A stretch of 64,000 bases of DNA from an archaeon (lineage in GTDB: Archaea; Nanobdellota; Nanobdellia; Woesearchaeales; JBDRAZ01): NCBI GenBank assembly GCA_043823195.1, contig JBDRAZ010000103.1:42038-106037 (forward strand), in the 5' to 3' direction. Positions within the stretch are counted from its first letter, which is position 1; each line of letters starts with the position of its first letter. The notes under the pieces were generated by a model. It was not told the DNA's origin, did not search any database, and saw only the letters and a list, made by a program, of their open reading frames with translations. Positions 11,722 to 62,774 of this stretch are shown here, piece by piece. The translations under genes were made by a program, and so were the position numbers.

Positions 11722-13606
11722 TTACATATAAATGCTTCGGACCCTGAGCTCCTCAACTACCTTCTGCAAACGCCTGATGCGCTCAGCCATCTCCTGGCTG
11801 GATTTGTGGAAATCATTCATGACAGATATCAGCTCTCCAAGGACGGCCTTGTTGTCCCTGTACCTTGAAAGCTCCTGCCTGAGCTTCCTGGTCTGCGTCA
11901 CATCGCTGGGTGCGCATTTATTGCAGTGGGATGAGAGTTTCCCCTTTATCCCCTCCTCTCTCTTCCTGGCGAAAAACTCCCCCCGCCAGATATCCAGAAG
12001 CGGCCTGTCCCTTATATTATCGCCTTCCTCGGCAAAAAGCCCCGTGAGCCCGCATACACCGGTCCGGCCGTCGTGCTTAATCGCCATGTTGTACCAGGGC
12101 TTCAGGCAGTGGACATCCTCAAGTTTCATTTGCATCCTCCAGTATTGCCTTTCCGAGCTCCCCCGCAGACTTAACAAGCCTGTCCTGCAGTGTCTGGTCT
12201 TTATGGGTGAAGTTTGTCTCAATCCCGTACCTATCTGCGAGCACCCTCGCCTTTTCCACATATCCCGGCAGTTCCCCCCGCTCGGGACCGGTAAGCTTCA
12301 GTCCTGATCCCCCGCTATGATACTCGATTAGGGGCTCAGTGAACACATACTTTACATTCAGCCCGTGCGCAAGCTCAATCATCTCTGGCAGTTCCCTGTA
12401 GTTCAGCCTGTTTGTGACAAAGTTTATGTATATCTCGGGCCGCCCCCCCTTTCTCAGCCTGTTAAACTGCTGAATCGTGTCCAGCGTCTTGTCAAAAGCC
12501 CCCTTAACGCCCCTTAGCATGTCATGGGTTTCAGCCTTTGCACCGTCAATGCTGAAATGCAGCCTGTCCCATCCGATGCTGATGGTATCCTTGATCAGCC
12601 TTTCAGTCCACAGCGTTCCGTTGGTTGTCATCACTCCGTACATCCTGTCATTCTCCTTGACTGATTTCATGACCGGCATGCAGAGTTCAGGCACCATCAT
12701 CGGCTCGCATGCACCCTCAATGTTCCATATAAGCACTCCTGCCCTGTATGACTCCTCGACAATATCAAGCCATTTCCCAAGGGGCATCTCCCTTTTCATG
12801 CTCCTCATATTAAGGTCAGGGCCCGCACCCTGCCGCGTGCATGCCCTGCATTTCAGGTTGCATCTTGTGTGGAGTTCTGCATCAATTTTAAGCGGCGGCG
12901 CCTCAATCCCGTTCTCCCATGACATGAACCTCATAGCCCGCAGGCGCGCAATGATATCCTCCTTCCTGAACCCAATCATAAGCTTCTGTTCCTTCAGGAA
13001 ATATTCAAGCAGCGCGCTTCGTATGTAGTTATCATAGCCGGCCCTGTGCTCAGCATTGCCTGCATTCGAAAAGTCAGCATGGTATTGATCCAGATTCGCA
13101 GTCAGCATCTTTTTTTGTTTCCCGCTAAGCTGGTCGAATCCCCTCTCGCCTTTTATATCCGGCCTCGCCACAGGCCTTTCGGTCTCAACCCACGGCCGCT
13201 TAACGCCGAACTCGCTTTTCCATCTCTCAATCTGTCCGATGACAATCTCAGCCTCCGGTCCATCCCTGAATATCAGCCTGTCCCATTCAATCCTCACCAG
13301 ATTCCTAATTGTGTCCTGCCCCAGGGTCCTGCCGCTAAGATAGCCAACACCGTAGATCCGGTCACCCTTCTTCAGCTCCTTAAGAAATTCAAATCTCCCA
13401 TTTGCCGACTCATCAAGGTCAGCAACCTCGATTATCCTAATCCTGCTTTTCTTGATCCTGGTTATAAGCGGCAAATCGGCTTCCCCGATCTTAAGGGTGC
13501 CGCAGAACGGCTCAAACGGCCCGCCCTCGCACCAGCAAAGCGCCCTTTCCCTCAGCTCGAGAAGAAGCTCACCTAACCTTTCCTTTGGGTCAACGGCGTC
13601 CGGCAT
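11722..13606 (-). pseudogene. radical SAM/SPASM-type enzyme with ~215-aa N-terminal extension, disrupted by a 19-bp insertion near 12121-12139
   Basis: ORF 12119..13606 has CNLKCRACTRQ, GGEP-like and TNGTLW motifs, then stops at ...AILEDANET*. The SPASM half (MKLEDVHCLKPWYN..GRTGVCGL..HCNKC) continues in another frame as ORF 11722..12261. Removing caaatgaaacttgaggatg restores ..AILEDVHCLKPW.., which is collinear with the paralogs. Confidence 0.6.
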
Positions 13607-14753
13607 GTTCCTCCATCTCCTTCTTTATTGCCTGGACCTCAAAAACCCTCCAGACGCAGCAGGTGGCGCACGCCTCAGGCAATCTGCGTGTCAGTATCTG
13701 CCTCCTGTACTGGTCGAAATACTCGCCATGCCAGAGCTCCTTGAGGGTATGGTTCTTGATGTTGACCTTTGTCTCCCAGACATAGTTGTTGAAGCATGCA
13801 GCGATGTTTCCGTTGCCAATAATTGTGACATGGCTCCATGGCTCAAAGCACGGTACTGTCATGAAGTTTTCCAGCGGGTCCTCACTCTCATCCTCGATCA
13901 GCCTCTCGCCCCGCTCTATCCTCTTCCTGATTTCAGTCTTCTCAGCCTCTTCCATAAGGACCTCATGCATGGAGCCAGTCTTCTCAACATACCTGAGATC
14001 CAGAAACCTCTCGAGGTTTGACCATATTTCATGCTTCCTCAGGATCGGAAGGCATTTCCTGATTATGCCCTGGAATTCAGCCATCTGATCGATGTCCATC
14101 TTCAGCCTTTCCCCCTCTTTTGAGAACACGGTAAGCGGCAGTATGTGCAGTTCGTTGCAGCCGACGCTGCGGCCAATTTCGATAATGTTCGGCAGGTCCT
14201 TGTAGTTCCTGTTGGAGACAACGGTGTTGAACCCTATCCTTGGGCGGTCGCTCCCCATGGCCTTCTTCAGCCCTGCAAGCCTCCTGATGTTTGCAAGGAC
14301 CATGTTGTAGCACTTGGCACCCCGCAGGTCATCCTGGATCCTGGCAACAGAGCCGTCGATGCTGAATTTGACCATGGTCCACCTGCTCTTCACCAGGCCA
14401 CGCATCATCTCCTCGGTGAGGAGGCTTCCGTTCGTAACAATATCCCCATCCATGCCGCGCTTCCTGATCCTCATCATGAGCTCAAAGGTAATTTCACGCG
14501 ACAGCGGCTCCCCTCCGCCGACCAGGGCAATCTCCCTGACCCCAAGCTCTGCTGCCTCATCAACAAGCCCCATCAGGCGCTCATCACTCATCTCCTCTGA
14601 ATACCTCTTTTGAAGGTCTCCTGCGGAAACACCCTGCCTCCAGCAGCTGCGGCAGCTGAAATTGCACCTATCGGTAGGAATCAGTTCAATTGTGACCGGA
14701 GGCTGAGGTCTGCCTCTGGCCCATTCAATAAGCCTCTCGGTTTTCAGGTTCAA
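13590..14753 (-). CDS. radical SAM enzyme with SPASM/twitch-type C-terminal Cys domain
   Basis: LIEWARGRP..TDRCNFSCRSCWRQ (CxxxCxxC), VGGGEPL, VTNGSLL, C-terminal VPCFEPW..GNIAAC..CATCC. Family N-terminal motif RL..W..G. TATA ctttataaaaagg about 30 nt upstream on the minus strand. Confidence 0.75.
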   Translation of the reverse strand: MNLKTERLIEWARGRPQPPVTIELIPTDRCNFSCRSCWRQGVSAGDLQKRYSEEMSDERLMGLVDEAAELGVREIALVGGGEPLSREITFELMMRIRKRGMDGDIVTNGSLLTEEMMRGLVKSRWTMVKFSIDGSVARIQDDLRGAKCYNMVLANIRRLAGLKKAMGSDRPRIGFNTVVSNRNYKDLPNIIEIGRSVGCNELHILPLTVFSKEGERLKMDIDQMAEFQGIIRKCLPILRKHEIWSNLERFLDLRYVEKTGSMHEVLMEEAEKTEIRKRIERGERLIEDESEDPLENFMTVPCFEPWSHVTIIGNGNIAACFNNYVWETKVNIKNHTLKELWHGEYFDQYRRQILTRRLPEACATCCVWRVFEVQAIKKEMEEHAGRR

Positions 14754-14795: not shown

Positions 14796-16574
14796 TTATC
14801 CAAGTTTCTCAAGCTTTCGCCGTGCAGATCTCTCCTCAGGTATCTCAGCAAAATCATATCCCTGTGCTCTTCTGAAGTAGCTGGCTGCCTCCTTGAGGTT
14901 GTCCAGCCTGTATGAGCAGATGGCCAGGAAATACAGTGTATGAAATATAGCGGCCTCGGGCTGCTTTACCTTCAGGCTTTTTTTCAGGCATCTTGCCGCC
15001 TCTTTGTAATTGCCCGATTTTGCATGGCACTTGCCCAGGGAAAACCAGCTCCATTCCAGCTCAGGATCCATTTCAACAGACCTCAGCAGGCAATCCCTGG
15101 CCTTTTCATATTGCCCGAGCTCCATGTGGCACTCACCCAGGTCCCTCAGGGCAAGGGCGCCGGGCGGAATATTCTCAAGCAGCCCGATCGCTTCTTCAAA
15201 TCTCCCCAGCTCCCTCTTGCACCTGGCAATGCTGTATCTTGCCAGGTCCCTTCTTTCACTGCTGTCCTCAAGCCCCTCCAGCTTTTCATAGCACCCGAGG
15301 GCCATGGCGTGCTTTCTGGTCTGCATGTAAATCCTGCCCAGCACAAGCCAGGCATTCCTATTGTCCGGGTTAACCTTAAGCAGATGTTTCATGTAATCGA
15401 TGGCTCTGCCGAACATGCTGTTTTCATAGAAGAATGTGCCGATCTCCCCGAAGCGTTCCATGACCTCCTTTTTTGTGGCCTTTTTTTTCCTGTATTTGTC
15501 ATATAGGCTGAAATGCATGTCCCTTCTGAGCATCTGGGTGCGTATGTACTGCCAGGCGCCGCATCTTGAGCATTCTGCCGGGAGCCTGCCCTCCAGCAGG
15601 TCACTGCGGAACATGGCAAACTCCCTGCTGTTCCATATGTGATTCAGGTCTGTTTTGGCGTTGAGGCCCGGAATCGTGCGCTCGCAGCAGGCACCAACCC
15701 TTCCGTCCGGGTGGATCATCAGGTTATACCAGGGCTCATAGCATGGCACAGACAGAAAACCTCTTTTCTCATATTCAATTTTCTGGTGCGCATGAGAACT
15801 CACAACAGATTTCATCTCATTGGATCTGCGGATCAGGTCAACATCAAGCTTGTCAAGGTCGCTTTCAATGCCATACTCCTCAACTTTGCCGATTGCCTTA
15901 AAGAGGGAGTTTTTCAGCTTGTCGGATTGCTCTTTGGAGAGCCTCAGCTTGTCGAGATGCCCGCTGCCCTTGATTGGATTAACATTGAGAAAATCGCATC
16001 CCATCTGTTTCGCAAGGTCAACCATGCCGGGAAGCTCTTTGTAGTTCCTGTTGCACAGCACCATTGTCAGGACCGCGCTGGGCAGCTTCACCGCGGCCGC
16101 CCTCTTGAATTCGGCCAGCTTCTGCATTGCTGCAGTCGCCCTCCCAAACGAGCCCCTCCCCCTGAGGCAATCATTGGTCTTTTCGCAAGCGCCCTCAATG
16201 CTGAAGCATATGCTCTCCCAGCCCATCAGGACAAGGTTTTTAATCATATCATCTGTGAGGAGGGTCCCGTTTGTTATCACCGTTCCGTTCATCCCGTGGT
16301 CCCTGATCTGCTTCATCAGCATGATTGTTACCGGGCGCATGAAGGGCTCGCCGCCGCCGGACAACAGCCATTCCCGCACCCCCAGCCTATGTGCCTCATC
16401 AACAATCCCTCTGAGCCTGGCATCGCTAAGCTCCGGCCTATCGCGGGACAGCCCCCTGCAGAATACGCAGTTCAGGTTGCACCTGTCAGTTACGTTGAGC
16501 TGTATCCTGAACGGCGGGCTGGTTTTTCCCTCTGACCAGTTCAGCAGCCTTTGCGTTTTTTCATAATCTTTCAT
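14796..16574 (-). CDS. radical SAM/SPASM-type enzyme fused to C-terminal TPR repeats
   Basis: N-terminal LLNWSEGKT..TDRCNLNCVFCRG, SGGGEPF, ITNGTLL, VPCYEPW..GRVGACC..CSRCG. The last ~230 aa are TPR-like helical repeats (LGRIYMQ..ALGCYEKL..). Confidence 0.75.
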   Translation of the reverse strand: MKDYEKTQRLLNWSEGKTSPPFRIQLNVTDRCNLNCVFCRGLSRDRPELSDARLRGIVDEAHRLGVREWLLSGGGEPFMRPVTIMLMKQIRDHGMNGTVITNGTLLTDDMIKNLVLMGWESICFSIEGACEKTNDCLRGRGSFGRATAAMQKLAEFKRAAAVKLPSAVLTMVLCNRNYKELPGMVDLAKQMGCDFLNVNPIKGSGHLDKLRLSKEQSDKLKNSLFKAIGKVEEYGIESDLDKLDVDLIRRSNEMKSVVSSHAHQKIEYEKRGFLSVPCYEPWYNLMIHPDGRVGACCERTIPGLNAKTDLNHIWNSREFAMFRSDLLEGRLPAECSRCGAWQYIRTQMLRRDMHFSLYDKYRKKKATKKEVMERFGEIGTFFYENSMFGRAIDYMKHLLKVNPDNRNAWLVLGRIYMQTRKHAMALGCYEKLEGLEDSSERRDLARYSIARCKRELGRFEEAIGLLENIPPGALALRDLGECHMELGQYEKARDCLLRSVEMDPELEWSWFSLGKCHAKSGNYKEAARCLKKSLKVKQPEAAIFHTLYFLAICSYRLDNLKEAASYFRRAQGYDFAEIPEERSARRKLEKLG

Positions 16575-16581: not shown

Positions 16582-18729
16582 CTACTGCACGCATTCCCTG
16601 CATGTAAGGTTATCGCCGGCCCTTCCCCCCAGGCTTACGCTGTCGATATATATGACCCTCTCTTCCTGCGCATTAAGATCATTGTCAATCCTGAACCTGT
16701 AGGACTTTACCATGTCAAGGTCCCGTCTCCCGTTCCCCTGAAAAGGGAATGATTCGTCCTGCGGCTCAAGCTCATCGAACAGGACGGTAATAAGTGTCCA
16801 GTTCCTGCCAAGCAGGACATCTGCGTTCCTGTATTCCCACCAGTCATCATCCCTGTCAACAATGTACAGGTGCAGCATCCCGCCCATCCCGTCCCCCCTC
16901 ACCGCAAAACTGATGCTCTCATAATCACTCCAGTCCTGACCAATATTCCGGTATGCCTTTATGTGCTTGACAACCCCCTGATCCTCGCCGAAGCTGACCG
17001 AGAGCCTGAGTGAGTTCCTGCCTTCAAATGCATGGCTGTCCGCAGACGCGGCAATAAAAACGGATGGCTCGTGGTCCGGGTCGCCGCTGCCAAATCCCTC
17101 AAAAACCATGTTGCTGAGGTCGCCGTCCTCAAAGTCATCTATGGTCTGATCTGCATCTCCCGCTTCACCTTCACTGTCAATCACCTTGTAGATGAAGAAT
17201 ATCTCCTCGCCCTTTGAGTCCCTTATCTTTTCAAGAATGGCCAGCTCCTTTCCCGCCTCCCGGGCCGCCTGTTCAAGCCCCTCCAGCCTGCCCCTGAATA
17301 TCGTGTGCCTCTTGGAATAAAACACATAGGCATTGGCCGGATCATTGACCCTGTCCTTAATGTCGGCGATATATTCCGCCGGCGGGCCCTCCTCCGCAGG
17401 ATTCTCGCTGACATAAATGTCAATTGGCGCGACCGCACCCCTCGTATTGATCAGTACCGGGTTAGATATTCCCCAATCCATGATCAGGGGTTCAGCTATC
17501 CCGTTTTCCATGAGGTATTCAGATAACCTGTACAGCGCATCTGAATAGCGGGCGGCATCGCCGGGATGTATTATGTGGGTCTCGTAGCGCAGAGTGTAGA
17601 TGCTGCCGGCAATCACCAGGAAAATTACCCAGAGCCACAGGTAAATCTTATTATGCCCAAAAACCCGGACAACAGAAACAGCAATGATCTGCGCCATGAG
17701 CGGAAGCAGTATCAGCTTATGGTGTGCGCCGAAATTTGTGACTGTTACTGTCAGGGTCAACAAGATCACCGCGAAATTGACAAGCACAAAGGCCAGGTTT
17801 CTTCTTATGCTGCGAATGCCCGCCAGGATGATAATGACTGATGCCAGAAGCAACAGGTTGTAAATCACGGGTGATACTGAGAGCAGTTGCGTGATGTTTG
17901 TGGCAAGATTGCCTGATACATCCAGGTTGTTGGTGCCGAATCTGGTGCCAGGAAAATTTGAAAAAAAGAACTTAAAGGTCCCAAGGGTGATTATGTTGTA
18001 AATCAGGAGCGGCATGCACCCCGCTGCAAAGCTGCAGGCTGCAAGGGCTGCCTCTTTGCGCTTCAGTGGCAGGACCGGCCGCACGTTCTTCCACCTGAGG
18101 AGAACCGGCGCAGACGCCGCCAGGGCAAACAGGTAGAAGAGGAACAGCAGAAGGGTGTATGTCCCGAACCCGAGCATAAAGAATCCCGCGTAAAGATACC
18201 GGCGTTTCTTTGTATCCGCATATCTCAGGAAGCAGAGCAGGGCAGCATAATAAAGCAGCATAAGGAAATGGATAATCAGTGTGCTCCGGTTCATGTAGAG
18301 GAAATTGATATGGAATGCAAGTGCGGCTGTGGCCACATATGCAACTTTCCTTGAAAAGAATCCCTTAGTGAACAGGTAATATGCCACGAGCATGAGCATC
18401 TGCAGCATAATCAGGGGAATTCTTATCGAGTATACGCTGATGTCAAAGACCCCGAAGATCCCCATATAGAGGTAGGCAAGTGTCCATCCCGCATACGGGG
18501 TAGCCATAACCGGAAGCTCCACCCCTGACACGTTCACGCTGTACTCCACCATTCTTTCCTTAACCTCGTCACTCAGCCCGCCGGACAGCATCTGCATGGC
18601 AACTATCGGCTCAATCACGGCATCATAGGAGAGCGCAGGCATGCCAATATCACGGATATTAAGGAAGAAGAACAATGCCAGCACCGCAGCAAGAAAGGCA
18701 ATCTCGCTTCTCCTCATCTGTCTTTTCAT
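16582..18729 (-). CDS. polytopic membrane protein (GT-C-type glycosyltransferase-like) with C-terminal CBM11/CIA30-like beta-sandwich domain
   Basis: About 13 predicted TM helices in the first 450 aa. The C-terminal ~200 aa are paralogous to 24126..24905 and 30936..31688 (shared ..DWSxYxxxxFAVxGDGxGGxLxLxxVDxDxDWWxYxxxxxLxxxxWTxxTxxFxxLxxxxxxFPxxGxG..YRxRID). Confidence 0.55.
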   Translation of the reverse strand: MKRQMRRSEIAFLAAVLALFFFLNIRDIGMPALSYDAVIEPIVAMQMLSGGLSDEVKERMVEYSVNVSGVELPVMATPYAGWTLAYLYMGIFGVFDISVYSIRIPLIMLQMLMLVAYYLFTKGFFSRKVAYVATAALAFHINFLYMNRSTLIIHFLMLLYYAALLCFLRYADTKKRRYLYAGFFMLGFGTYTLLLFLFYLFALAASAPVLLRWKNVRPVLPLKRKEAALAACSFAAGCMPLLIYNIITLGTFKFFFSNFPGTRFGTNNLDVSGNLATNITQLLSVSPVIYNLLLLASVIIILAGIRSIRRNLAFVLVNFAVILLTLTVTVTNFGAHHKLILLPLMAQIIAVSVVRVFGHNKIYLWLWVIFLVIAGSIYTLRYETHIIHPGDAARYSDALYRLSEYLMENGIAEPLIMDWGISNPVLINTRGAVAPIDIYVSENPAEEGPPAEYIADIKDRVNDPANAYVFYSKRHTIFRGRLEGLEQAAREAGKELAILEKIRDSKGEEIFFIYKVIDSEGEAGDADQTIDDFEDGDLSNMVFEGFGSGDPDHEPSVFIAASADSHAFEGRNSLRLSVSFGEDQGVVKHIKAYRNIGQDWSDYESISFAVRGDGMGGMLHLYIVDRDDDWWEYRNADVLLGRNWTLITVLFDELEPQDESFPFQGNGRRDLDMVKSYRFRIDNDLNAQEERVIYIDSVSLGGRAGDNLTCRECVQ

Positions 18730-19976
18730 TTGCTATGGTACCTTCTTACATTCACGAGCGCAGTTGCCCGGGAGATGCCGTAATCCGTGGATATCTCGCC
18801 CTGGTTGCAGCATGACATCACCTGATAATCAATGCGGGCGGGATCGCAGATAACAGCAAAGGCCAGGATCATGCAGCCGGCGCCGCCCGCCTTTGTGAAT
18901 GTCAGGGGGCCCGAATAGGCCAGCCTGAAAAGGCTAGGCAGCAGGAGCAGGCTTCGCCACCGCATTGCCGTGATGAGCCTCATCCAGCTTATGATGCGGG
19001 CATTGCCCGGGATAGCGGCCAATCTCCTGAGGTCAACAAAATCGGCAAGTGTTCTTACCCTTTTTCCCCTGAACAGGGGGTAGTACAGGTTGTAAAAGCA
19101 TTTCTTCCTGCCAAAGATATGCGAGAGCAGGTACAGGAGCGGCTGGCTGCGGTATACCCTGCCTGTTGAAACCCTCCCCCCGGTTGACCTGCAGAGTTCA
19201 TCCATAATATCCTCAACGCACATCAGGCCTCCGGGCATCTTCATGTGCGCCACCGGCCTGAACACCACTGCTTTAACGAACCTGTTATTCAGGGCATAGC
19301 GCAGTATCCCTGGCGTCTCGCCAATATTATTCTCATCCACCGTGGCTTCGATTACCGTTGGCATGCGGCATCCCCTCAGGTTCCGGAGCGCCAGGAGCTT
19401 GCTGTCCAGGAGGTCAGCTCCGCGACGCCCGATATAATAGTCCCTGTCAAAACCGTCAAACTGAAGATGAACCTCAGAGACCCCTGATTTCTTAAGCATC
19501 TCAACATAAGGCTTCTGAGCCAGCCTGATGCCGTTTGTATGCAATAGGGCAGCATTGCCTGATTCTCTGACTATCCTGATTATGTCGGCCAGGTCTTCCC
19601 TGATTGTCGGCTCCCCGCCGAACAGGCCGATCTTCTTTCCCCTGAATCCCGCCAGCAGCTGCCTGATCTCCCTGAGCGACGGCTCACGGTATTTGTGGTA
19701 GTTGGCCCTCACAAAGCATTCCCTGCAGCTGATGTTGCAATCAAGCGTCAGCATCAGCTGATACAAATCAGGCCCCGGACCCTTGCCGGGATATGAGAAA
19801 TAGGAATCATGCATTGCCCGGTAATCCCCCGGATGCGAAGAAAGCATCACACTGAAATCCCCGTGGTCGCTGCAGCTCTTGACCATCTTCACTGTCCCGG
19901 ACGTTTCAACCACATCTGCACTGATCTTCCTGAGGCATACCGGGCACAATGAGTGCGTCTTTCTCAGCACGTTCAT
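18726..19976 (-). CDS. zinc-ribbon-radical SAM fusion enzyme (paralog of 22728..24047)
   Basis: N-terminal CPVCLRK..(20)..CSDHG ribbon, then LTLDCNISCRECFV (CxxxCxxC), GLFGGEPT, LHTNGIRL. C-terminal Cys cluster (..CDP..SCCNQG). Confidence 0.6.
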   Translation of the reverse strand: MNVLRKTHSLCPVCLRKISADVVETSGTVKMVKSCSDHGDFSVMLSSHPGDYRAMHDSYFSYPGKGPGPDLYQLMLTLDCNISCRECFVRANYHKYREPSLREIRQLLAGFRGKKIGLFGGEPTIREDLADIIRIVRESGNAALLHTNGIRLAQKPYVEMLKKSGVSEVHLQFDGFDRDYYIGRRGADLLDSKLLALRNLRGCRMPTVIEATVDENNIGETPGILRYALNNRFVKAVVFRPVAHMKMPGGLMCVEDIMDELCRSTGGRVSTGRVYRSQPLLYLLSHIFGRKKCFYNLYYPLFRGKRVRTLADFVDLRRLAAIPGNARIISWMRLITAMRWRSLLLLPSLFRLAYSGPLTFTKAGGAGCMILAFAVICDPARIDYQVMSCCNQGEISTDYGISRATALVNVRRYHSK

Positions 19977-50814: not shown

Positions 50815-50823
50815 ATGGTTACC

Positions 50824-52703: not shown

Positions 52704-52756
52704 GGGCTTCTGAGAATCATGAATATTATAAAAAGCTTTTGATACCGTGGGATGCT

Positions 52757-54962: not shown

Positions 54963-55929
54963 TTTCTTTCCTCTTGTACCATTCGATAGTCTGCCTCAGG
55001 CCCTCTTTCAGCCGGACCTTAGGGGCAAATCCGAGGATTTCTCCGGCTCTGGATGAATCGCAGTTCCGCCTGGGCTGCCCGGTTGGCTTCGCAGTATCAT
55101 AATGGATGCTGATGTCTTTTTCAGATGCGTCGGCAATCATCCTCACGAGGTCTTTTATTTTTATTTCTTCAACAGTGCCCAGGTTGATGGGGCCCTTTCC
55201 GCAGCCCTTTTCTGCTGCCAGGAGGATTCCCTCTGCAAAATCAGTAACATACAGGAATGATCTGCTCTGTTCGCCGTTTCCCCATACGACCAGAGGGTCC
55301 TCGCCTGAGAAAACCCTCCTTATCAGTGCGGGTATGACGTGCGACTTTTCAGGGTCAAAGTGGTCACGGGGCCCATAGGCGTTGTAGGGGCGCACAACAG
55401 CAATTGCCATGCCGAATTCAGTTTCGTAGAGCTTGGCCTGCAGCTCTGCCATCCTCTTTGCCCAGCCGTACCCTTCATTGGTTGGCTCAGGGACACCCTC
55501 GAATCCCTCTGACTCGGGGGTTGGGATTGTGCAATCCCGCCGGTATACGCAGGCCGAACTGACCATGACCAGCCTGCTTACCCTGTTAACCCTCGCAGCC
55601 TCAAGCACATTTATCTGCATCATCATGTTGGACCTGAACATGGTGCCCGGGTGCTCCTTGTTGTAGCCGATGCCCCCTACCTTAGCGGCAAGGTGCAGGA
55701 TGATATCCATGCCGCGCGCAGCCCTGGCTGCATCCCCAGGGTCTTTCAGGTCGCACTTGACAAACTCTATCTGTTCTCTTACTCTCTCTAGGTTTTTCAG
55801 GTTCCCGTTTTCCAGGTTATCCGCAACAGTCACCCTGGCCCCCTTTTCAACAAGGAGTTCAGCTGCATGGCTGCCTATGAATCCCGCTCCGCCGGTTACC
55901 AGAACCCGTTTATCATTCCAGAAAGTCAT
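54952..55929 (-). CDS. NAD-dependent nucleotide-sugar epimerase/dehydratase (SDR)
   Basis: [18 protein letters not shown].., YGWAK. Confidence 0.7.
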   Translation of the reverse strand: MTFWNDKRVLVTGGAGFIGSHAAELLVEKGARVTVADNLENGNLKNLERVREQIEFVKCDLKDPGDAARAARGMDIILHLAAKVGGIGYNKEHPGTMFRSNMMMQINVLEAARVNRVSRLVMVSSACVYRRDCTIPTPESEGFEGVPEPTNEGYGWAKRMAELQAKLYETEFGMAIAVVRPYNAYGPRDHFDPEKSHVIPALIRRVFSGEDPLVVWGNGEQSRSFLYVTDFAEGILLAAEKGCGKGPINLGTVEEIKIKDLVRMIADASEKDISIHYDTAKPTGQPRRNCDSSRAGEILGFAPKVRLKEGLRQTIEWYKRKENEK

Positions 55930-57149
55930 TTTAGGATCTTCTTGAAAACACCCACAATATAATCGATGTCATCTGCCTCGAGGTATTGGTGGCAGCCTAT
56001 ATAAAATGCATTCTCGCCAATGTAATCTGCATTTGGCAGCCTGTTCCTGTAGGTCTCCCTCAGGTGTGCGTAGGCCGGCTGCTGGGTCGGGATACTTCCG
56101 AAGAGAGGCCTCGTCTCCACACCGTTTTCCTCAAGCTGCATCCTCAGCCTCTTCCTTGGGATGACATTCGGCTTATTTATGAGAATGGGATATGCAAGAT
56201 AGCTTATATCTGTTGAGAATCTGGGCAGCTGCAGAATATCGCTGAACTCCTCAAGGCCCTCATTAAGCAGCCTGACGTTTTCCTGCCTTGCCTTTATTAT
56301 CCACTCGGCCTTCTTGATCTGTGTAAGCCCCAGGGCAGCCTGAAACTCCGTTGTTTTGAAGTTCAGGCCAATTATATCATGATGGAATCTTGGATCAAAA
56401 TCATGGCCCTTATCCGAATCCATATGCGGACATTTGCCGGTGGCCCGCGTGCATACATTGCAGTCGCACATGCGTCCGTTGGCCTTTATCTTCCTGACGA
56501 GCCGGCTAATCTCCTTGTCATTTGTTGTTATTGCACCCATCTCTCCGACCTGGATGTTATGGGCAATGTAAAATGAGAAGTCTGAAAGATGGGAAAGGGA
56601 TCCGGTGCGCTTTCCTTTGTAGAGGGAGCCATGGGCCTGCGCAGAATCCTCAAAGACCACCATGTCATGCTCTTTTGCTATGCGGTTTATGCCATCCATG
56701 TCGCAGGGGTAGCCCATCAGGTGGACCGGCAGCACAACCGAGTGCTCAGAGGCATCGTCACTGTTTTCCAGGGCCTCTTTAATGTTTTCGGGGGTAATGT
56801 TGAAAGTCTCCCTGTTGACATCAACGTAGACCGGGTCAAGATTGGCTGCGACAACCGCATTGCTTGTCGCAATGTAGGTTATGGGTGTGGTGATCACCTT
56901 TGGCCGGTTTCGGAGGTCATGGATATTTTTCAGCGCCATGAGCCCGGCAAGGATGGCCGAGGTGCCCGAGCTAAGCACGACGCAATGGTCGGTTCCGACA
57001 AAACCAGACCACTGTTTCTCGAACTCCCTGACTTTCCTGCCTTCGGATATCCGTCCGCTTTCCACGACTTCCAGGATGGCAGACCGCTCTGCATCGCCTA
57101 GCCTGAAATCGCCAACATGAATCTTTTTCATACGCTGCCCCCTTATCAC
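55926..57149 (-). CDS. DegT-fold PMP-dependent sugar 3-dehydratase-like enzyme (E1/ColD-like; His replaces the Schiff-base Lys) with Cys cluster motif
   Basis: SFYIAHNIQVGEMGAITTND (AHN in place of AK/TK), FEDSAQAHGS, C-x-C-x2-C-x6-C (CDCNVCTRATGKC). Confidence 0.5.
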   Translation of the reverse strand: MIRGQRMKKIHVGDFRLGDAERSAILEVVESGRISEGRKVREFEKQWSGFVGTDHCVVLSSGTSAILAGLMALKNIHDLRNRPKVITTPITYIATSNAVVAANLDPVYVDVNRETFNITPENIKEALENSDDASEHSVVLPVHLMGYPCDMDGINRIAKEHDMVVFEDSAQAHGSLYKGKRTGSLSHLSDFSFYIAHNIQVGEMGAITTNDKEISRLVRKIKANGRMCDCNVCTRATGKCPHMDSDKGHDFDPRFHHDIIGLNFKTTEFQAALGLTQIKKAEWIIKARQENVRLLNEGLEEFSDILQLPRFSTDISYLAYPILINKPNVIPRKRLRMQLEENGVETRPLFGSIPTQQPAYAHLRETYRNRLPNADYIGENAFYIGCHQYLEADDIDYIVGVFKKILK

Positions 57150-57385: not shown

Positions 57386-58672
57386 ATGAGATTCAGCAAA
57401 ATATGCATTGTCGGGATGGGGTATGTCGGGCTAACGCTCTCAGTGGTTCTGGCTGAGAAGGGTTACAAAGTGCACGGCATGGAGATCAACAAGGACGTAG
57501 CTGCACAGTTGAATAGGGGAAAGCCGCATTTTCATGAAAACCGGCTGGACGTTCTGCTGAAAAAGCATCTTAACAATAATCTCACAATATCTGATGATGC
57601 CCCTGATGATTACGAGGTTTTCATAATCTGTGTCGGTACACCCCTTGACAAGGGCACCAAGAAGCCAATCCTGGATTATATCATGCGGTCTGCCGAGGCG
57701 ACGGCAAAACACCTTTCTGACGGGTCTTTGGTGATTCTGAGAAGCACGGTTCCCGTCGGCATAACAAGGAATGTTGTCAAGCCGATACTGGAGACCGCGG
57801 GCAAGAAGTTCTACCTGGCGTTCTGTCCTGAACGGACAGCTGAGGGAAACGCACTCAGGGAGCTGCGTGAACTGCCGCAGGTAATCGGCGGCCTGGACCA
57901 GGACAGCGTGGACCTTGCTGTAGACCTTTTCAGGAAAGTGACTCCGACAACAATAGAGGTATCATCCCTTGAGGCTGCTGAGATGGTCAAGCTCCTTAAC
58001 AACACATATCGTGATCTTACCTTTGCCTATGCAAACGAAGTCGCCAGGATATGCGAGCATGCCGGTCTGTCTGCCCTTGAAACGATCAGGGCAGCAAACC
58101 TTGGCTATTTTAGGTCAGATATCCCGATGCCCGGATTTGTAGGCGGCGCATGCCTGGAAAAGGACCCCTACATACTTGCAGAATACTCCGGAAAAAGAGG
58201 CTATGACCCAAAGCTCGTCAGGCAGGCGAGGGAAATAAACGAGGCCCTTCCGGGCCACATAGCTGACACGGTTAGCAGGATGTTATCTGAGAACAATGTA
58301 ACCAGGGCAAAGGTGTTCATCAGCGGATTCGCATTCAAAGGCAGGCCCGAAACTGACGATCTCCGCGGATCCCTTACGATACCGCTGGCAAATGAGCTGC
58401 AGAGAAATCACAGCGTCTTTGCTCATGATTTTGTTGTAAAGCCGGAGATGCTGGAATTGGCAGGATACAAGGCCTGCTCAATTGATGACGGCTTCCGGGA
58501 TGCCGATTGTGTCATCATAGCCAACAACCACAACTCCTATCAGAAACTCAATTTCGGAAAACTGCTCCCCACTATGAAGCGGCCTGCTCTGCTCTATGAT
58601 GTCTGGAGAATCTTTGAAAAGGACGAGATTGCGCAGGATGGGGTTATTTACGGGGGGGTTGGGATTGGCTAA
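57386..58672 (+). CDS. nucleotide-sugar dehydrogenase (UDP-glucose/GDP-mannose dehydrogenase family; WecC-like)
   Basis: ICIVGMGYVGLTLSVVLAEKGYKVHGMEIN.., GGACLEKD catalytic Cys. Confidence 0.7.
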   Translation: MRFSKICIVGMGYVGLTLSVVLAEKGYKVHGMEINKDVAAQLNRGKPHFHENRLDVLLKKHLNNNLTISDDAPDDYEVFIICVGTPLDKGTKKPILDYIMRSAEATAKHLSDGSLVILRSTVPVGITRNVVKPILETAGKKFYLAFCPERTAEGNALRELRELPQVIGGLDQDSVDLAVDLFRKVTPTTIEVSSLEAAEMVKLLNNTYRDLTFAYANEVARICEHAGLSALETIRAANLGYFRSDIPMPGFVGGACLEKDPYILAEYSGKRGYDPKLVRQAREINEALPGHIADTVSRMLSENNVTRAKVFISGFAFKGRPETDDLRGSLTIPLANELQRNHSVFAHDFVVKPEMLELAGYKACSIDDGFRDADCVIIANNHNSYQKLNFGKLLPTMKRPALLYDVWRIFEKDEIAQDGVIYGGVGIG

Positions 58673-59645
58673 AGTGCTCGTCACAGGCGGTGCAGGCTTT
58701 ATTGGGTTTCATCTCTCCAGGCACCTGGCAGGACAGGGCTACGATGTAACAATCTGTGATAATTTCTTCAGGGGCAGCAGGGATGACGAATTAAAAGCCC
58801 TCCTGAAACAGCCGAATGTCAGCCTGATTGAATGCGACATGGCAGACAGTTCCTGCGTGACCCTGCTGGGGGCGGGCTATGATTATGTTTACCATCTCGC
58901 AGCAATCAACGGCACCAGGTATTTCTACGAGATTCCTGACAAGGTCCTGCGGGTTAACATATTGTCTGCAATCAATGTGCTGGACTGGTTCGTGAAAAGC
59001 GGTTCAGGCAAAATCCTGTTTGCATCTTCATGCGAGGCATACGCATCCAATAAGGACCTTCCCCTGCCTACGCCGGAGGACGTCCCCCTTGCGGTTTCAG
59101 ACGTGAAAAATTCCCGCTTTTCCTATGGCGGGAGCAAAATCGCGGGCGAACTGCTGTTTTACAACTATGCAAAGGTGCATAAATTCAGAATGACCATACT
59201 GCGCTATCATAACCTCTATGGCCCGCGCATGGGCTTTGAGCATGTGGTTCCTGAATTCTGCATGAGGCTTATAAAAAAGGAGGATCCTTTCAGGATTATT
59301 GGCGGCAAAGATACCCGAAGCTTCTGCTACTGCGATGACGGGGTCCGCGCAACCCAGCAGGTCATGGAATCAGAAAAGACCGACGGGGAGATCATCCATA
59401 CAGGCAACAGCACCGAGGAGATCAGCATTGTTGACCTGGCCGGCAGGCTTATGGATATTGCAGGTTTCCATCCTGAGATAAAGGTATCTCCTGCACCCGA
59501 GGGGAGCGTTAACAGGCGGTGCCCTGACCTGACAAAGATAAAGGCCCTGACAGGATACGAGCCGGAAATCATGCTGGAGGATGGCCTGAAAAAAACACTG
59601 GCCTGGTATAGGGATAACCATTTCGGGCACAAACTGGCAAAATGA
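58665..59645 (+). CDS. NAD-dependent nucleotide-sugar epimerase/dehydratase (SDR); TTG/GTG start near 58665-58674
   Basis: [21 protein letters not shown].., YGGSKIAGE. The ORF track begins at 58596 inside the upstream gene. Confidence 0.6.
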   Translation: MAKVLVTGGAGFIGFHLSRHLAGQGYDVTICDNFFRGSRDDELKALLKQPNVSLIECDMADSSCVTLLGAGYDYVYHLAAINGTRYFYEIPDKVLRVNILSAINVLDWFVKSGSGKILFASSCEAYASNKDLPLPTPEDVPLAVSDVKNSRFSYGGSKIAGELLFYNYAKVHKFRMTILRYHNLYGPRMGFEHVVPEFCMRLIKKEDPFRIIGGKDTRSFCYCDDGVRATQQVMESEKTDGEIIHTGNSTEEISIVDLAGRLMDIAGFHPEIKVSPAPEGSVNRRCPDLTKIKALTGYEPEIMLEDGLKKTLAWYRDNHFGHKLAK

Positions 59646-60931
59646 ATAAGGAAGAAATCCGGAACCGTATTTCAGAGCTGGTTACCCAGTACTATGGCAG
59701 CGAAAAACGCGGGTTTGTCCCAGGCAAGACCAGGATTGGCGTGGGTGCTCCCGTATATGATGACAAAGAAGTGATGCATGTCATTGACTCCCTCTTCTCC
59801 GGCTGGATCTCGCAATCCAGGAACGTCGCTGACCTTGAAAGGGACTATGCAGCCTATCATGGGGTCAAGTATGCTGTTGCCCTTAATTCAGGATCTTCTG
59901 CAAATCTGATCGCGCTCCTGGCCCTCATTGAGTCCGGCAAGATCAAACAGGGTAGCGAGGTCATCGTTCCTGCTACTACTTTCCCTACAGTGGCATCCCC
60001 AATTATTCAGCTTGGGCTGAAACCGGTCTTTGTTGATGTTGACGGGGCGTCATTTAATCTTGATCCTGAAGCAGTCCGCTCTGCAATCACAGCCAAAACC
60101 AGTGTTATCATGCCTGCGCATTTTCTCGGCTATCCGGCAGACATGGAGCAGATGGTGCAGATCGCCAGGGAACACAGCCTGCACATAATTGAAGACTGCT
60201 GCGAGGCGCACGGCGCCAGGTTCAGGGGGAAGCTGGTAGGCACCTTTGGGGACATGGGCACCTATTCATTCTTTGTTGCCCATAACATAACCTGCGGCGA
60301 AGGCGGCATGATAATCACTGATAATGCGGAGTACTATGAGCTGGCAAGGTCACTGCGCGCCTTTGGGAGGGCCTGCACCTGCCCAATTTGCCTGGTCACA
60401 CAAGGTAAGCCATGCAAGCTCAGGGATTTCCATGACCCCGTGCTTGCCAACTACAACATCAGGCAGGTGTTTCTCAGGCTTGGCTATGCGCTTAAGATGA
60501 CTGAGATGCAGGCTGCCTTCTGCATTGAACAGCTGAAAAAGCTGGACAATTTCAACTCCCAAAGAACTGAAAACGCAGAGTTCTACACCGAACACATTCG
60601 TTCAGGGCATCTGCAGCTGCCCGCGGCAGGCGCAGGCATAGCCCATGCATATTATGGATATGCAATCGTTATCAGAAAAGATGCGCCCTTCAGCAGGGAT
60701 CAGTTTGTGAAGCACCTGGAGGACCGCAGGGTTGAGACACGGCCGTTCTTTGGCGGATCACTCCCTGACCAGCCGGCCTTCAGGAATCAGGACATTAAGA
60801 TTGCCGGCAAACTGCCAAATTCTGACTGGGTACGGGATTACGGTGTTTTTATCGGCTGCCATCCCGGCATCGGCAAGGAAGAAAGGCAATATGTGGTTGA
60901 TGTCATCAGGTCCTTTACGTCTCAGTATTGA
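59642..60931 (+). CDS. DegT-fold PMP-dependent sugar 3-dehydratase-like enzyme (E1/ColD-like) with Cys cluster motif
   Basis: SFFVAHNITCGEGGMIITDN (His for Lys), IEDCCEAHGA, C-x-C-x2-C-x7-C (CTCPICLVTQGKPC) reminiscent of the E1 C-x-C..C-x7-C Fe-S ligands. Confidence 0.5.
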   Translation: MNKEEIRNRISELVTQYYGSEKRGFVPGKTRIGVGAPVYDDKEVMHVIDSLFSGWISQSRNVADLERDYAAYHGVKYAVALNSGSSANLIALLALIESGKIKQGSEVIVPATTFPTVASPIIQLGLKPVFVDVDGASFNLDPEAVRSAITAKTSVIMPAHFLGYPADMEQMVQIAREHSLHIIEDCCEAHGARFRGKLVGTFGDMGTYSFFVAHNITCGEGGMIITDNAEYYELARSLRAFGRACTCPICLVTQGKPCKLRDFHDPVLANYNIRQVFLRLGYALKMTEMQAAFCIEQLKKLDNFNSQRTENAEFYTEHIRSGHLQLPAAGAGIAHAYYGYAIVIRKDAPFSRDQFVKHLEDRRVETRPFFGGSLPDQPAFRNQDIKIAGKLPNSDWVRDYGVFIGCHPGIGKEERQYVVDVIRSFTSQY

Positions 60932-62774
60932 CCCGGACCAGCCAGACCTCCCTCCCATGCCCGAACTTCCTTTCAACAACAAATTTATCAGAGCCTTCAA
61001 TGTCTGAATAGAGGTCCGGATTAATGGCAAGCACCCTCATCTGCTCCTCCGGGTCCCCCGCCCAGTCAACCCATCCGGTGTTTTCAGTGATCTGGATTTT
61101 AGGCAGCAGGACATACGAGAACCCGCCCCTGACATGAGAATAAAGGTTCTCCGCATTCTGGGACTCTATGGATGTCCAGTTGTATTCCTCAGTGAAGCTG
61201 CCGGCAACCTTGTACCTGTACCTGTAGAATCTCAAAGGCATGCCGCCGCCGACCTTAATTGCATAAATGCCGGCATCATCAGGGACGTAGTCCGCAATAT
61301 ATGCAACAGCATCCCTGTACGGAAAATTGAGAGGGCGCTCGCGGTAGGTCAATGTTAGGGAATTGGCAGCCAGCAGCAGGGCAATTATCGAATATGCGGC
61401 ATACCCGGCCCATTTGGGATATGGCCTGAGCACCGCCAGAAGGAGGACTGCGCTGATGAATATGCAGGCGGGAAGATACGGCGCAACAAGCCGGCCGAAA
61501 TGCATGCCGATGCCATAGGCAAGGTCTGAAACAAAGAATGCATACCACCCCACGAACCAGGCCAGTGAAACTGTAAACAGCAGATGCCTTCTGCGGGCAG
61601 CCACCATATAGGCCATGCCCAGGATGAAGCAGACATAGAGTATCCAGCCAAGCTGATCCTGCAGCAGGGCAAAATACCGTGTCACGAGGCCGAATGAGGT
61701 CCAGTTTGAGATGTAAAATGTGTATTTTCGCCACGTGAACAGGCTGTTTATTGCAAGGATTGGCACTACCGGGATCATCAGCGGGTATGCGCTTTTTGCA
61801 ATATCCCAGGCTTTCCTGCGATGCAACAGCAGCACAACCGCCATGATTGGCACGGTAAACAGGATAGGCCTTTTGTAAAGAAATCCCAGGTAAAAGAAAA
61901 TGGCAAGGAGCAGTGCGTCCCGCGTACTGCCGTGCATTGCCCACCTGCTGAAGTAGTACATGATGGCCAGCACAAAAAAGACAGTGCCGGCTGTCAGGTA
62001 CCCCAGGTGCGCCCATACAAAGAAGCCCGGGGCAAGCAGCAGGAAGGCCGCGCACTGGAGCGATATGTCCCTGCTGTAGAGCCCTGCAAACCTGAACATA
62101 AAGGCTGCCGACAGGCAATAGAAAATCAGTGACGGCAGTCTGGCAGAAAACTCGCTGACCGGCAGCAACAGGAAGCTCAGGTATGCCGGAATCACGCTTA
62201 ACGGCGGAAAGCGCACCAGGCCCTCATACATTATGCTGATTGTCTGGCCTGATGCGGCAGAGTAGCTTCCTATGAACTGGTTTGCCAGGAAAAAATATCC
62301 GTTGAGGATTGCAGCGGCAGCTATATGTGATATGGCCGGATGGATCTTAAGCCGGATCCTGCCCAGCAGCAGCCATCCGAGAGCCAAGGCGGCAATTGCC
62401 AGGCAGATTGCGGCCTTTGCCGGGATTGGCAGGAGGTCTGCCAGCCTGTCTGTCAGTGTTACAAAGGATATTGCACGGTTAACGTGATAGGCTTCATCCC
62501 CTGACGCATATATCGGGTGGCTCATGGCCGGGATATGCAGTGCAGCCGCTGCCGCCAAAAGCGCAATCAGGGCAAGGTTCATTCTAATCCTTGGAAGCCC
62601 GATTTCGGTCTTGCCGAATATCCGCACGAGGATGATCCTGTTGGCAAAAATCCATATAAGCATAAGGTTGAATGCAAGAAACCTGATCCAGGCAGGGGCT
62701 TCGGGAAACACCCACACCGGATACACAATCAGGGAAAAGACAAGGATCAGGTCAATTATTCTGGTTCCTCTCAT
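60915..62774 (-). CDS. GT-C-like polytopic membrane protein with C-terminal soluble domain
   Basis: 619 aa. First-loop SGDEAYHVNRA resembles the GT-C DE motif. About 13 TM helices, then a ~130-aa hydrophilic tail. Confidence 0.5.
   Translation of the reverse strand: MRGTRIIDLILVFSLIVYPVWVFPEAPAWIRFLAFNLMLIWIFANRIILVRIFGKTEIGLPRIRMNLALIALLAAAAALHIPAMSHPIYASGDEAYHVNRAISFVTLTDRLADLLPIPAKAAICLAIAALALGWLLLGRIRLKIHPAISHIAAAAILNGYFFLANQFIGSYSAASGQTISIMYEGLVRFPPLSVIPAYLSFLLLPVSEFSARLPSLIFYCLSAAFMFRFAGLYSRDISLQCAAFLLLAPGFFVWAHLGYLTAGTVFFVLAIMYYFSRWAMHGSTRDALLLAIFFYLGFLYKRPILFTVPIMAVVLLLHRRKAWDIAKSAYPLMIPVVPILAINSLFTWRKYTFYISNWTSFGLVTRYFALLQDQLGWILYVCFILGMAYMVAARRRHLLFTVSLAWFVGWYAFFVSDLAYGIGMHFGRLVAPYLPACIFISAVLLLAVLRPYPKWAGYAAYSIIALLLAANSLTLTYRERPLNFPYRDAVAYIADYVPDDAGIYAIKVGGGMPLRFYRYRYKVAGSFTEEYNWTSIESQNAENLYSHVRGGFSYVLLPKIQITENTGWVDWAGDPEEQMRVLAINPDLYSDIEGSDKFVVERKFGHGREVWLVRVNTET

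Follow-up and report, generated by a model that had tools for sequence, protein, structure and literature searches.

Tailoring of sugars by enzymes of the radical S-adenosylmethionine (rSAM) superfamily has been described for a small number of antibiotic and hopanoid pathways, each of which employs one or two such enzymes; BtrN, for example, is 2-deoxy-scyllo-inosamine dehydrogenase. The subject of this analysis is a 51-kb island, positions 11722-62774, in a stretch of 64,000 nucleotides of archaeal DNA (contig JBDRAZ010000103.1), the whole of which we call the window. About one third of the genes in this island (14 of some 40) encode rSAM enzymes, and they are interleaved with genes for the assembly of an envelope glycan.

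Enzymes of the same superfamily also act on archaeal membrane lipids. The modification of glycerol dialkyl glycerol tetraethers (GDGTs) uses Tes, a zinc-ribbon rSAM enzyme, Gms/Hbs, which are of the twitch type, and the B12-binding rSAM enzymes Grs and Hgm (10.1101/2023.10.20.563219). Homologues of Tes in metagenome-assembled genomes (MAGs) of DPANN archaea have been noted as unexpected, and as perhaps belonging to hosts (Zeng et al. 2022, PMC8941075). Our search of the literature returned lipid-enzyme papers of this kind and mentions of single genes, with no description of arrayed rSAM genes in the glycan loci of archaea, DPANN lineages included, and no curated NCBIfam family claims the enzymes of the island. 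A first-pass annotation of this DNA, made from the sequence alone, had considered the locus not to be a described system, and in this it appears to have been right.

The island and its counterparts in other genomes

A listing of open reading frames (ORFs) combined with a motif scan finds exactly 14 ORFs with a CxxxCxxC motif between positions 11722 and 62774, and all 14 match the Pfam family Radical_SAM (PF04055) above its gathering score, each at more than 29.5 bits. By their Pfam domains they fall into three classes, namely twitch/SPASM (seven genes), zinc-ribbon (two) and B12-binding (five). Both the number of genes and the three architectures agree with the first-pass annotation, which had itself proposed hidden Markov model searches that these proteins might have failed. 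The binomial probability of finding 14 rSAM genes among 40 is 2e-14 at a background rate of 2%, and 2e-10 at 4%, these rates being our own estimate for anaerobic archaea. On its left the island is preceded by 11.7 kb without an rSAM gene, where housekeeping genes and a solitary 5S rRNA gene are found.

The rSAM genes lie within operons and overlap glycan genes by 4 nt and 11 nt. The overlapping pairs and runs lead from zinc-ribbon rSAM to GT-C glycosyltransferase (GT), from a DegT-family gene to a B12-binding rSAM, and from DegT through a short-chain dehydrogenase/reductase (SDR) and a GT2 to a further B12-binding rSAM. The interleaving described by the first-pass annotation is thus real, and its inventory of glycan genes holds up in Pfam and NCBIfam searches. 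The genes for sugar nucleotides comprise two of the UDP-glucose dehydrogenase (UGDH) family, five SDRs (one UXS-like, one GMD-like) and four of the DegT family, while those for transfer and export are a Wzx flippase, a NodU-type carbamoyltransferase, one GT4, two GT2 and four GT-C of the PMT_2 type.

The same combination of genes recurs elsewhere. With the twitch-type protein 34712 as query (genes are named here by their first coordinate), 213 homologues are found at E < 1e-10, mostly in Aenigmatarchaeota and unclassified archaeal MAGs, with a few in Thermodesulfobacteriota; on one Aenigmatarchaeota contig, at least 16 consecutive rSAM genes stand straight after a GT2 gene. Scans gave 14 loci in species-representative genomes and 37 in metagenomes of the Joint Genome Institute (JGI). 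Those long enough to judge are tandem arrays of 5-15 twitch-family genes, usually preceded by a GT2; among curated models, this is matched best by AglG, a dolichyl phosphate (Dol-P)-linked glucuronosyltransferase. The arrays contain or abut genes for GT4, PMT_2-type GT-C, DUF2079, Wzx, DegT, carbamoyltransferase, Phosphodiest, CBM11-like and B12-binding rSAM proteins. Of the 22 metagenomic loci that are 6 kb or longer, 16 carry a recognisable glycan gene, and the same gene mix is found in more than 30 independent contigs, the gene labels of the metagenomic loci coming from BLAST to the window proteins with sampled Pfam checks rather than from full annotation. A profile search of 1.84 billion representatives returned 5,683 proteins at E <= 1e-30, and more than 150 representative clusters of the twitch family (50% identity) score above 340 bits. 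Conservation in related genomes, which the first-pass annotation had suggested looking for, therefore extends across Aenigmatarchaeota and other uncultured genomes, and the window island is not a unique locus but a widespread array system in dispersed form.

In a neighbour-joining tree of 89 family members, 34712, 27998, 26860 and 13590 each belong to an orthogroup of their own, with one member in most arrays. Orthologues of 13590 in arrays L001, L005, L008 and L012 are 45-62% identical to it, and the corresponding figures are 50-67% for 26860 and 47-56% for 27998. The usual array order is 34712-like, 27998-like, 26860-like, and in the window, too, 27998 stands immediately upstream of 26860. 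Because the orthogroups stay separate from array to array, the duplications must be old and the copies separately maintained, a pattern that, at the level of sequence, fits distinct catalytic roles rather than recent amplification.

Gene fusions tie the twitch family directly to glycan genes. Among the long proteins returned by the profile search, Pfam identifies fusions of a family rSAM domain to a GT4 (P0358), to a class I methyltransferase (P0381) and to a Phosphodiest domain (P0352). The last of these mirrors the window, where the Phosphodiest gene 25236 adjoins the twitch gene 26860. The contig of P0358 also encodes a GT2, an asparagine-synthase-type amidotransferase, a B12-binding rSAM and a PMT_2 protein, together with a single protein of 1,167 aa that consists of a GT2 and two rSAM/SPASM units (L019, 640-4143). 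In L003, a GT4 is fused to a degenerate rSAM domain that has no CxxxCxxC and lies beside family genes. By shared operons, by recurrence and by fusion, then, the rSAM genes are linked to glycan assembly.

Several further features of the arrays deserve mention. Chains of three or four rSAM domains occur in P0249 (1,927 aa; a B12-binding rSAM and three twitch rSAMs) and in P0243 (928 aa), which implies that the paralogs act together in an assembly. On two unrelated contigs (L001 1-1607, L020 12898-13956), arrays are flanked by aldo-keto reductases that carry ferredoxin-like 4Fe-4S domains and could be electron donors for the rSAM clusters. A small conserved coiled-coil protein that has no cysteine and ends in IHxSISYRLGRWIAET is encoded in four arrays (L001 18624-18827, L008 14652-14996, L012 3803-4078, L010 ~560-814). 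Some array contigs are labelled Syntrophomonadaceae (L006), Methanosarcinales (L004) or Thermodesulfobacteriota (L003, L013, L002). The gene order of L006 nearly equals that of the Aenigmatarchaeota array L007, to which it is sister in every orthogroup that holds both, and such bacterial and methanogen labels may reflect mis-binning or inter-domain transfer.

Three classes of radical SAM enzyme

Six of the seven twitch/SPASM genes are paralogs of one family, all on the reverse strand: 11722-13606, 13590-14753, 14796-16574, 26860-27984, 27998-29302 and 34712-35803, the last an array-core member. All six match rSAM and SPASM (PF13186) models in Pfam and are 32-36% identical to one another, and they share R6/W10/G13/P18 (R-x3-W-x2-G-x4-P) ahead of the cluster motif, as well as GxGEP. 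The first of them is divided into two ORFs, with the rSAM core in 12119-13606 and the SPASM/twitch part in 11722-12261. In 14796, C-terminal tetratricopeptide repeats (TPR) follow, as recognised by Pfam TPR families; the same rSAM-TPR fusion is found in P0103, P0318, P0325, P0301 and P0333.

Across 33 family members, G72, G74, E75 and P76 of the GGE-type SAM motif are invariant or nearly so, and across 89 members the catalytic cysteines and GxGEP are conserved. Only seven cysteines are conserved in those 89 sequences, namely the CX3CX2C triad and C276, C294, C335 and C338 (34712 numbering). The resulting auxiliary site layout, CX17C ... CX2C, is BtrN-like, and the twitch region of BtrN aligns to positions 274-351. 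The seven-cysteine SPASM motif, CX9-15GX4C...CX2CX5CX3C...C, does not occur among the 89 members, its CX5CX3C part being absent. Judged by sequence, the paralogs are of the twitch type, with one putative auxiliary cluster site of four cysteines that would bind the cluster, and not full SPASM proteins. The first-pass annotation was correct about the six genes and their N-terminal motif, but its SPASM/twitch designation has to be narrowed in this respect.

In four paralogs the cluster motif is at residues 29-34; in 27998 it is at residue 69, and this longer N-terminus may be a matter of ORF calling only. Pfam finds no PqqD match in the paralogs, that is, no N-terminal RiPP recognition element (RRE) for peptide binding, and in the AlphaFold2 (AF2) model of 34712 (mean predicted local confidence, pLDDT, 93.6) the N-terminus consists of one short helix only. 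By sequence profile the closest solved structures are SkfB, PqqE and SuiB, with anSME matched at an E of only 1e-10. Among NCBIfam models the twitch paralogs score 68-85 bits on AhbD and 42-52 bits on BlsE, the cutoff of which is 400.

The seventh gene, at 32013-33128 on the forward strand, encodes a distinct rSAM/SPASM protein (Pfam rSAM and SPASM), here called SPASM-B. It is 27% identical to 34712 and lies outside the paralog clade in the tree, grouping with L013_6056, in keeping with its separate treatment by the first-pass annotation. One nucleotide downstream follows a P-loop protein (33130-34197, forward strand) with a GGGKTT Walker A motif and a weak match to HprK-related kinase B (TIGR04355, 26.7 bits vs a cutoff of 200). 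The two genes may form a separate small module within the island (32013-34197).

Two of the rSAM genes, one in the twitch class and one in the B12-binding class, have broken reading frames. In 20014-21448 the break falls in a T11 run (20724-20734), and T10 would restore an ORF of 477 aa. In 11722-13606, a 1-nt deletion anywhere in 12119-12300, a zone of ~180 nt that contains a G6 run near 12273, restores an ORF of 627 aa. The first-pass annotation had called these genes a pseudogene and a frameshifted gene; the frames are indeed broken, but both breaks are of a single base and the ORFs are restorable by 1 nt. The frameshifts may be assembly errors or phase-variable tracts, and the T11 tract could represent either an assembly error or a slipped-strand phase-variation switch in a surface-glycan gene. 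Separately, positions 12950-13606 on the reverse strand encode an extension of ~220 aa upstream of the usual start of the family, with no match in NCBIfam or PADLOC, which may be a small gene of its own or a new N-terminal domain.

The two zinc-ribbon rSAM genes (18726-19976 and 22728-24047, both on the reverse strand) combine PF23545 (Zn_ribbon_HMPTM) with PF04055, as the first-pass annotation had anticipated in calling them zinc-ribbon fusions. What it missed is their homology to GDGT-MAS/Tes, a lipid-binding enzyme that couples archaeol tails through C-C bonds, and with it the lipid anchor as a possible substrate. The first of the two scores 150 bits on TrsS and 140 on Tes in NCBIfam, both below cutoff. 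The second is a full-length structural homologue of GDGT-MAS: phmmer matches it to 7tol at an E of 1e-44, and Foldseek aligns its AF2 model (pLDDT 91.4) over its whole length to 7tol and 7tom with template modelling (TM) scores of 0.81-0.83, the next match reaching 0.41. At 140 and 157 bits, vs a cutoff of 450 for the Tes equivalog NF045702, both proteins are by sequence homologues and not orthologues of Tes.

Members of this zinc-ribbon family are found in MAGs of Nanoarchaeota, Woesearchaeota and Omnitrophota, often two or three to a contig. Two such contigs, L017 and L018, carry one to three zinc-ribbon rSAM genes and three to five B12-binding ones along with PMT_2 and SDR genes. To these, one adds a carbamoyltransferase, Wzx and a methyltransferase, and the other NeuB and hexapeptide acetyltransferases; one of the two (112 kb) also holds a twitch array. 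Some of the DPANN Tes homologues mentioned above may be short zinc-ribbon paralogs of this kind in glycan islands.

All five class B enzymes called by the first-pass annotation are confirmed by Pfam B12-binding (PF02310) and rSAM matches, that of 35873 to PF02310 being marginal (31.6 bits vs a cutoff of 32.1). In the frameshifted gene 20014-21448 (forward strand) these matches are distributed over two fragments, with the rSAM domain on the C-terminal one. The product of 21445-22815 (reverse strand) scores 247 bits on rSAM_ladder_B12 (cutoff 360) and 243 on BzaD (cutoff 450), and that of 35873-37324 (forward strand) is matched best by HpnJ, at 178 bits vs 578. The remaining two are 45457-46836 (forward strand), which overlaps a DegT-like gene by 4 nt, and 52817-54289 (reverse strand), which belongs to the operon 46838-57149.

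Glycan genes, proposed chemistry and alternatives

The operon 38356-46836 (forward strand) encodes, by Pfam and NCBIfam matches, a UGDH, a UXS-like SDR, a PseC/ArnB-like aminotransferase, a second SDR, the Wzx flippase, a DegT-like protein and a B12-binding rSAM, with overlaps between genes. The operon 46838-57149 (reverse strand), with 4-nt and 11-nt overlaps, encodes an RfbH-like DegT protein, an SDR, an AglJ-like GT2, a B12-binding rSAM, a GMD-like SDR, a second AglJ-like GT2, the carbamoyltransferase, the GT4 and a GT-C. The right end of the island, 57386-62774, consists of a UGDH-family dehydrogenase, an SDR and an RfbH-like dehydrase on the forward strand and a GT-C (60915-62774) on the reverse strand. 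RfbH/E1 is the best match of two of the four DegT-family genes, at 384 bits for the dehydrase at the right end and 249 for the other vs a cutoff of 423; the remaining DegT-family genes are the PseC/ArnB-like aminotransferase and the DegT-like protein. Both GT2s are best matched by polyprenyl-phosphate sugar synthases, namely AglJ, Dol-P-hexose transferase, PpgS and ArnC, with AglJ scores of 152 and 92 bits vs a cutoff of 325. A sugar-1-phosphate nucleotidyltransferase at 37292-38116 (reverse strand; Pfam NTP_transferase, NCBIfam Arch_glmU) has weak NikR/ribbon-helix-helix matches in its N-terminal ~50 aa, and may combine a DNA-binding domain with an enzyme of sugar activation.

Further left, a GT-C with a C-terminal CBM_11-like domain (16582-18729, reverse strand; Pfam PMT_2 and CBM_11) overlaps the upstream zinc-ribbon rSAM gene by 4 nt. 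A second GT-C (29403-30926, forward strand; PMT_2 at 46 bits, with a weak Agl23 match) is followed by a membrane-anchored CBM_11-like protein (30936-31688, forward strand; 25 bits, just under the cutoff), the pair being a split version of the 16582 fusion. The latter protein resembles in sequence another membrane-anchored CBM_11-like protein at 24126-24905 (reverse strand; 32.5 bits), which stands alone beside a zinc-ribbon rSAM gene; related ORFs are seen in L029, L048 and L054. Thus found fused to one GT-C, just downstream of another and by itself, the CBM_11-like domain looks like an extracellular carbohydrate-binding partner of the GT-Cs. At 25236-26765 (forward strand) lies a secreted protein of the type I phosphodiesterase/alkaline-phosphatase superfamily (Pfam Phosphodiest, E 1e-25), a domain that, besides its fusion in P0352, occurs inside array L032.

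The left border is marked by a stand-alone 5S rRNA gene (11301-11417, reverse strand; Rfam RF00001, 64 bits), and no other rRNA or tRNA gene is found in the 64-kb window. The borders of the island show neither tRNA genes nor a GC shift, and hence no sign that it was acquired horizontally in recent times. Just left of the island, 10926-11294 (forward strand) encodes a small, cysteine-rich, lipoprotein-like protein, a segment of which we take to resemble a Kazal-type inhibitor motif.

GT-Cs of the PMT_2/ArnT group use polyprenyl-phosphate-linked donors. Given such donors, and GT2s that match polyprenyl-phosphate synthases, an Arn-like logic is the most economical model for the island. We think it somewhat more probable than its competitors taken together that the rSAM enzymes tailor polyprenyl-phosphate-linked sugars or glycans, and possibly the lipid anchor, before GT-C transfer to the surface. 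This tailoring of glycans, one of two options put forward by the first-pass annotation, is favoured because GT2 and GT4 proteins are among the fusion partners of the twitch family; with the recurrence of the gene mix, these fusions leave it the better supported of the two, but the substrates are still those that we infer from gene context.

In such a pathway, the nucleotide-sugar enzymes (UGDH, UXS-like, GMD-like and other SDRs, and the PseC-like and RfbH-like DegT proteins) would make amino, deoxy and uronic sugars. The AglJ/ArnC-like GT2s would load these onto polyprenyl (dolichyl) phosphate, and GT4s would extend them. The twitch paralogs could then abstract hydrogen from unactivated carbons of the lipid-linked sugars at the cytoplasmic face, and thereby oxidise, epimerise, deoxygenate or decarboxylate these sugars in the manner of BtrN, NeoN, DesII and BlsE, while the B12-binding enzymes, like GenK, HpnJ and AprD4, might methylate their substrates or rearrange rings. 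For the Tes-like zinc-ribbon enzymes, whose homology makes the lipid anchor a candidate substrate, the target would be the isoprenoid moiety, either in the same lipid-linked intermediates or in the finished glycolipid. Further decoration would be supplied by the carbamoyltransferase and the phosphodiesterase-family enzyme. Finally, Wzx would flip the products, and the four PMT_2 GT-Cs, three of which are fused to or paired with CBM_11-like domains, would pass them to surface acceptors. This scheme is conjectural in each of its chemical steps, in their sequence and in taking the substrates to be lipid-linked.

A number of observations weigh against this assignment. Fusions and gene neighbourhoods are evidence of functional linkage and not of a reaction, and it is from them that we infer the substrates and products of the rSAM enzymes. 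None of the 14 rSAM enzymes reaches a curated NCBIfam cutoff, and this assembly has frameshifts in two of the 14 genes. In a fold search with 34712, peptide-acting and sugar-acting enzymes (SkfB, SuiB, CteB and anSME, DesII and BlsE) come out equally close, at TM scores of 0.57-0.66, which means that the structure does not discriminate between the two kinds of substrate. TPR fusions are frequent in the twitch family, and TPR being a typical protein-protein interaction module, the substrates could be proteins. SPASM-B adjoins a gene that is weakly HprK-related-kinase-like, a pairing known from a putative peptide system. Lastly, AglB/STT3 was not found in the window, where the four GT-Cs match PMT_2 and not STT3, although AglB may lie elsewhere.

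Of the alternatives, the one that survives best, if still rather unlikely, is membrane-lipid remodelling, in which the rSAM enzymes would modify isoprenoid chains of the archaeol/GDGT type, perhaps scavenged from a host, and the glycan genes would supply head groups. The three rSAM classes do mirror the archaeal lipid toolkit of Tes, Gms/Hbs, Grs and Hgm, and the full-length likeness of 22728 to GDGT-MAS has been described above. Among the B12-binding enzymes, 21445 has as its best match a "lipid biosynthesis B12-binding/radical SAM protein", others have HpnJ, and the Tes homologues in DPANN MAGs were left unexplained in PMC8941075. On the other hand, the zinc-ribbon enzymes reach 140-157 bits against a Tes cutoff of 450, and on AhbD, the family that gave rise to Gms/Hbs, the twitch paralogs score no more than 68-85 bits. 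The fusion partners of the twitch family are GT2, GT4, methyltransferase and phosphodiesterase, not lipid enzymes; up to 15 paralogs exceed any known lipid-modification set; and no gene for lipid-core biosynthesis is found in the window or in the related loci examined.

Less probable again, and on our estimate improbable, is modification of a peptide or surface protein (an S-layer protein, a pilin or a small precursor) by sactisynthase-, anSME- or epimerase-like enzymes, followed by glycosylation, which resembles the second option of the first-pass annotation. The TPR fusions would suit protein binding, and the nearest structures are peptide-acting by profile (SkfB, PqqE, SuiB) as well as by fold (SkfB, SuiB, CteB). 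The pairing of SPASM-B recalls the GeoRSP system of Haft, but the scores fall far short of its cutoffs (46 bits vs 400 for SPASM-B, 27 vs 200 for 33130). Little else speaks for this option: the paralogs have no RRE/PqqD domain, their cluster motif starting near residue 29, and four auxiliary cysteines in place of the seven typical of peptide SPASM maturases, and they are fused directly to glycosyltransferases. The small ORF conserved inside several arrays might pass for a precursor, but it encodes a coiled coil, and the window lacks a homologue of it. Among window ORFs of at least 100 aa and locus ORFs of at least 50 aa, which were not supplemented by a dedicated small-ORF search of the window, neither a Cys- or Ser-rich precursor nor a leader protease or ABC exporter stood out. 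The Phosphodiest neighbour and fusion do recall the pairing of anSME with sulfatases; as a substrate for maturation in the style of anSME, however, 25236 was rejected, its sequence having, by eye, no C/S-x-P-x-R motif.

The weakest alternative, to which we give almost no credence, is chance co-location or decay, with unrelated housekeeping or degenerate rSAM paralogs caught in a variable glycan region: it could draw on the two frameshifted genes, but both of these are single-base events in a T11 run or in the ~180-nt zone with its G6 run, the density is improbable (P ~2e-14 at 2% background) against a left flank with no rSAM gene, and the recurrence of the gene mix in more than 30 independent contigs, the motifs conserved across 89 members and the fusions bring it close to refutation. 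A role in defence, of the viperin kind, was also considered and rejected, as PADLOC gave only partial core matches (35-71 bits) and NCBIfam viperin scores were at most 64 bits vs a cutoff of 180.

To return to the tailoring of lipid-linked glycans, a bolder version of it may be offered tentatively, as one that we hold to be less probable than its opposite. Batteries of four to more than 15 anciently diverged twitch paralogs, often fused to GT2 or GT4, would perform position-specific C-H editing of lipid-linked glycans, while cobalamin rSAM and Tes-like enzymes would modify or cross-link the isoprenoid anchor. The product, in uncultured anaerobes that are mainly Aenigmatarchaeota and other DPANN archaea, with a few bacteria, would be a hyper-modified envelope glycolipid or glycan. 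If this is true, such a product would have no known chemical precedent, and the "unexpected" Tes homologues of DPANN archaea would also be explained. Editing of lipid-linked glycans by these enzymes, if it takes place, would in itself imply a large reservoir of carbohydrate chemistry that functionalises C-H bonds, as well as unusual surface glycans in DPANN-type archaea, whose surface mediates host contact, and it would give an alternative reading to Tes homologues used as markers of tetraether lipids in metagenome surveys. The GT2-led arrays are compact, self-contained operons and hence suited to heterologous expression.

Comparison with described systems

With the rSAM/SPASM systems described by Haft (GeoRSP, the SCM cassette, sactipeptides and ranthipeptides), the window shares the presence of several rSAM/SPASM genes in one locus and the pairing of SPASM-B with an HprK-related-kinase-like gene. 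It differs from them in scores of 45-80 bits vs cutoffs of 400, in having neither PqqD/RRE nor the seven-cysteine SPASM motif, and in that the neighbours in the window are glycan genes.

The likeness to GDGT-MAS/Tes (7tol, 7tom) extends over the N-terminal zinc ribbon (PF23545), the rSAM core and the C-terminal domain, and the cysteine sets of the ribbon, of the SAM cluster and of a single auxiliary site are conserved. The window proteins are nonetheless shorter (416-439 aa vs 486-526 aa) and only 25-26% identical in structural alignment. They also occur as two or three paralogs per locus, beside PMT_2 GT-C, B12-binding rSAM and sugar genes and not beside lipid genes.

The class B enzymes resemble GenK/GenD1, AprD4 and HpnJ in coupling an N-terminal B12-binding domain to an rSAM domain and in residing in sugar operons with adjacent DegT enzymes. 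Their best curated matches are HpnJ, BchE and AprD4, and AprD4 (6fd2) is the best solved structure, at an E of 5e-29. Their scores, on the other hand, lie far below equivalog cutoffs (178-223 bits vs 578 for HpnJ, for example), and there are five copies in the locus, which concerns an archaeal envelope glycan and not an antibiotic or hopanoid pathway.

For the organisation of the island, the nearest parallel is to the Arn pathway (ArnC, ArnD, flippase, ArnT) and the Agl pathway (AglJ, AglG). The AglJ/ArnC-like GT2s, the ArnB/PseC-like aminotransferase, the UGDH with a UXS/ArnA-like SDR, the flippase and the PMT_2/ArnT-like GT-Cs all have counterparts there, and tailoring on a polyprenyl-phosphate-linked sugar is the proposed common feature. 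The tailoring enzymes in the island would be rSAM enzymes instead of a deformylase, no AglB was found in the window, and all matches to Agl and Arn models are below curated cutoffs.

For the twitch paralogs themselves, the closest relatives in kind are BtrN, BlsE, DesII and NeoN. Like BtrN, they join an rSAM core to a single C-terminal auxiliary site with four cysteines in a CX17C...CX2C arrangement. DesII and BlsE are among their top fold matches, and both groups have aminotransferases and sugar-nucleotide enzymes encoded nearby, DesI in the case of DesII. This similarity is at the superfamily level only, however. The twitch family has a helix motif of its own (RLxxWxxG...P) and 4-15 paralogs per locus, and we know of no GT fusions among enzymes of the BtrN type, the known examples of which act on soluble antibiotic intermediates and not on envelope glycans. 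The family is large, GT-fused and arrayed in up to 15 paralogs, with no curated family assignment and no characterised member. An envelope-glycan cluster with rSAM tailoring is, in sum, a known kind of system; the density of rSAM genes in this one we rate as unprecedented, and the family at its core is the large, uncharacterised, GT-fused twitch family.

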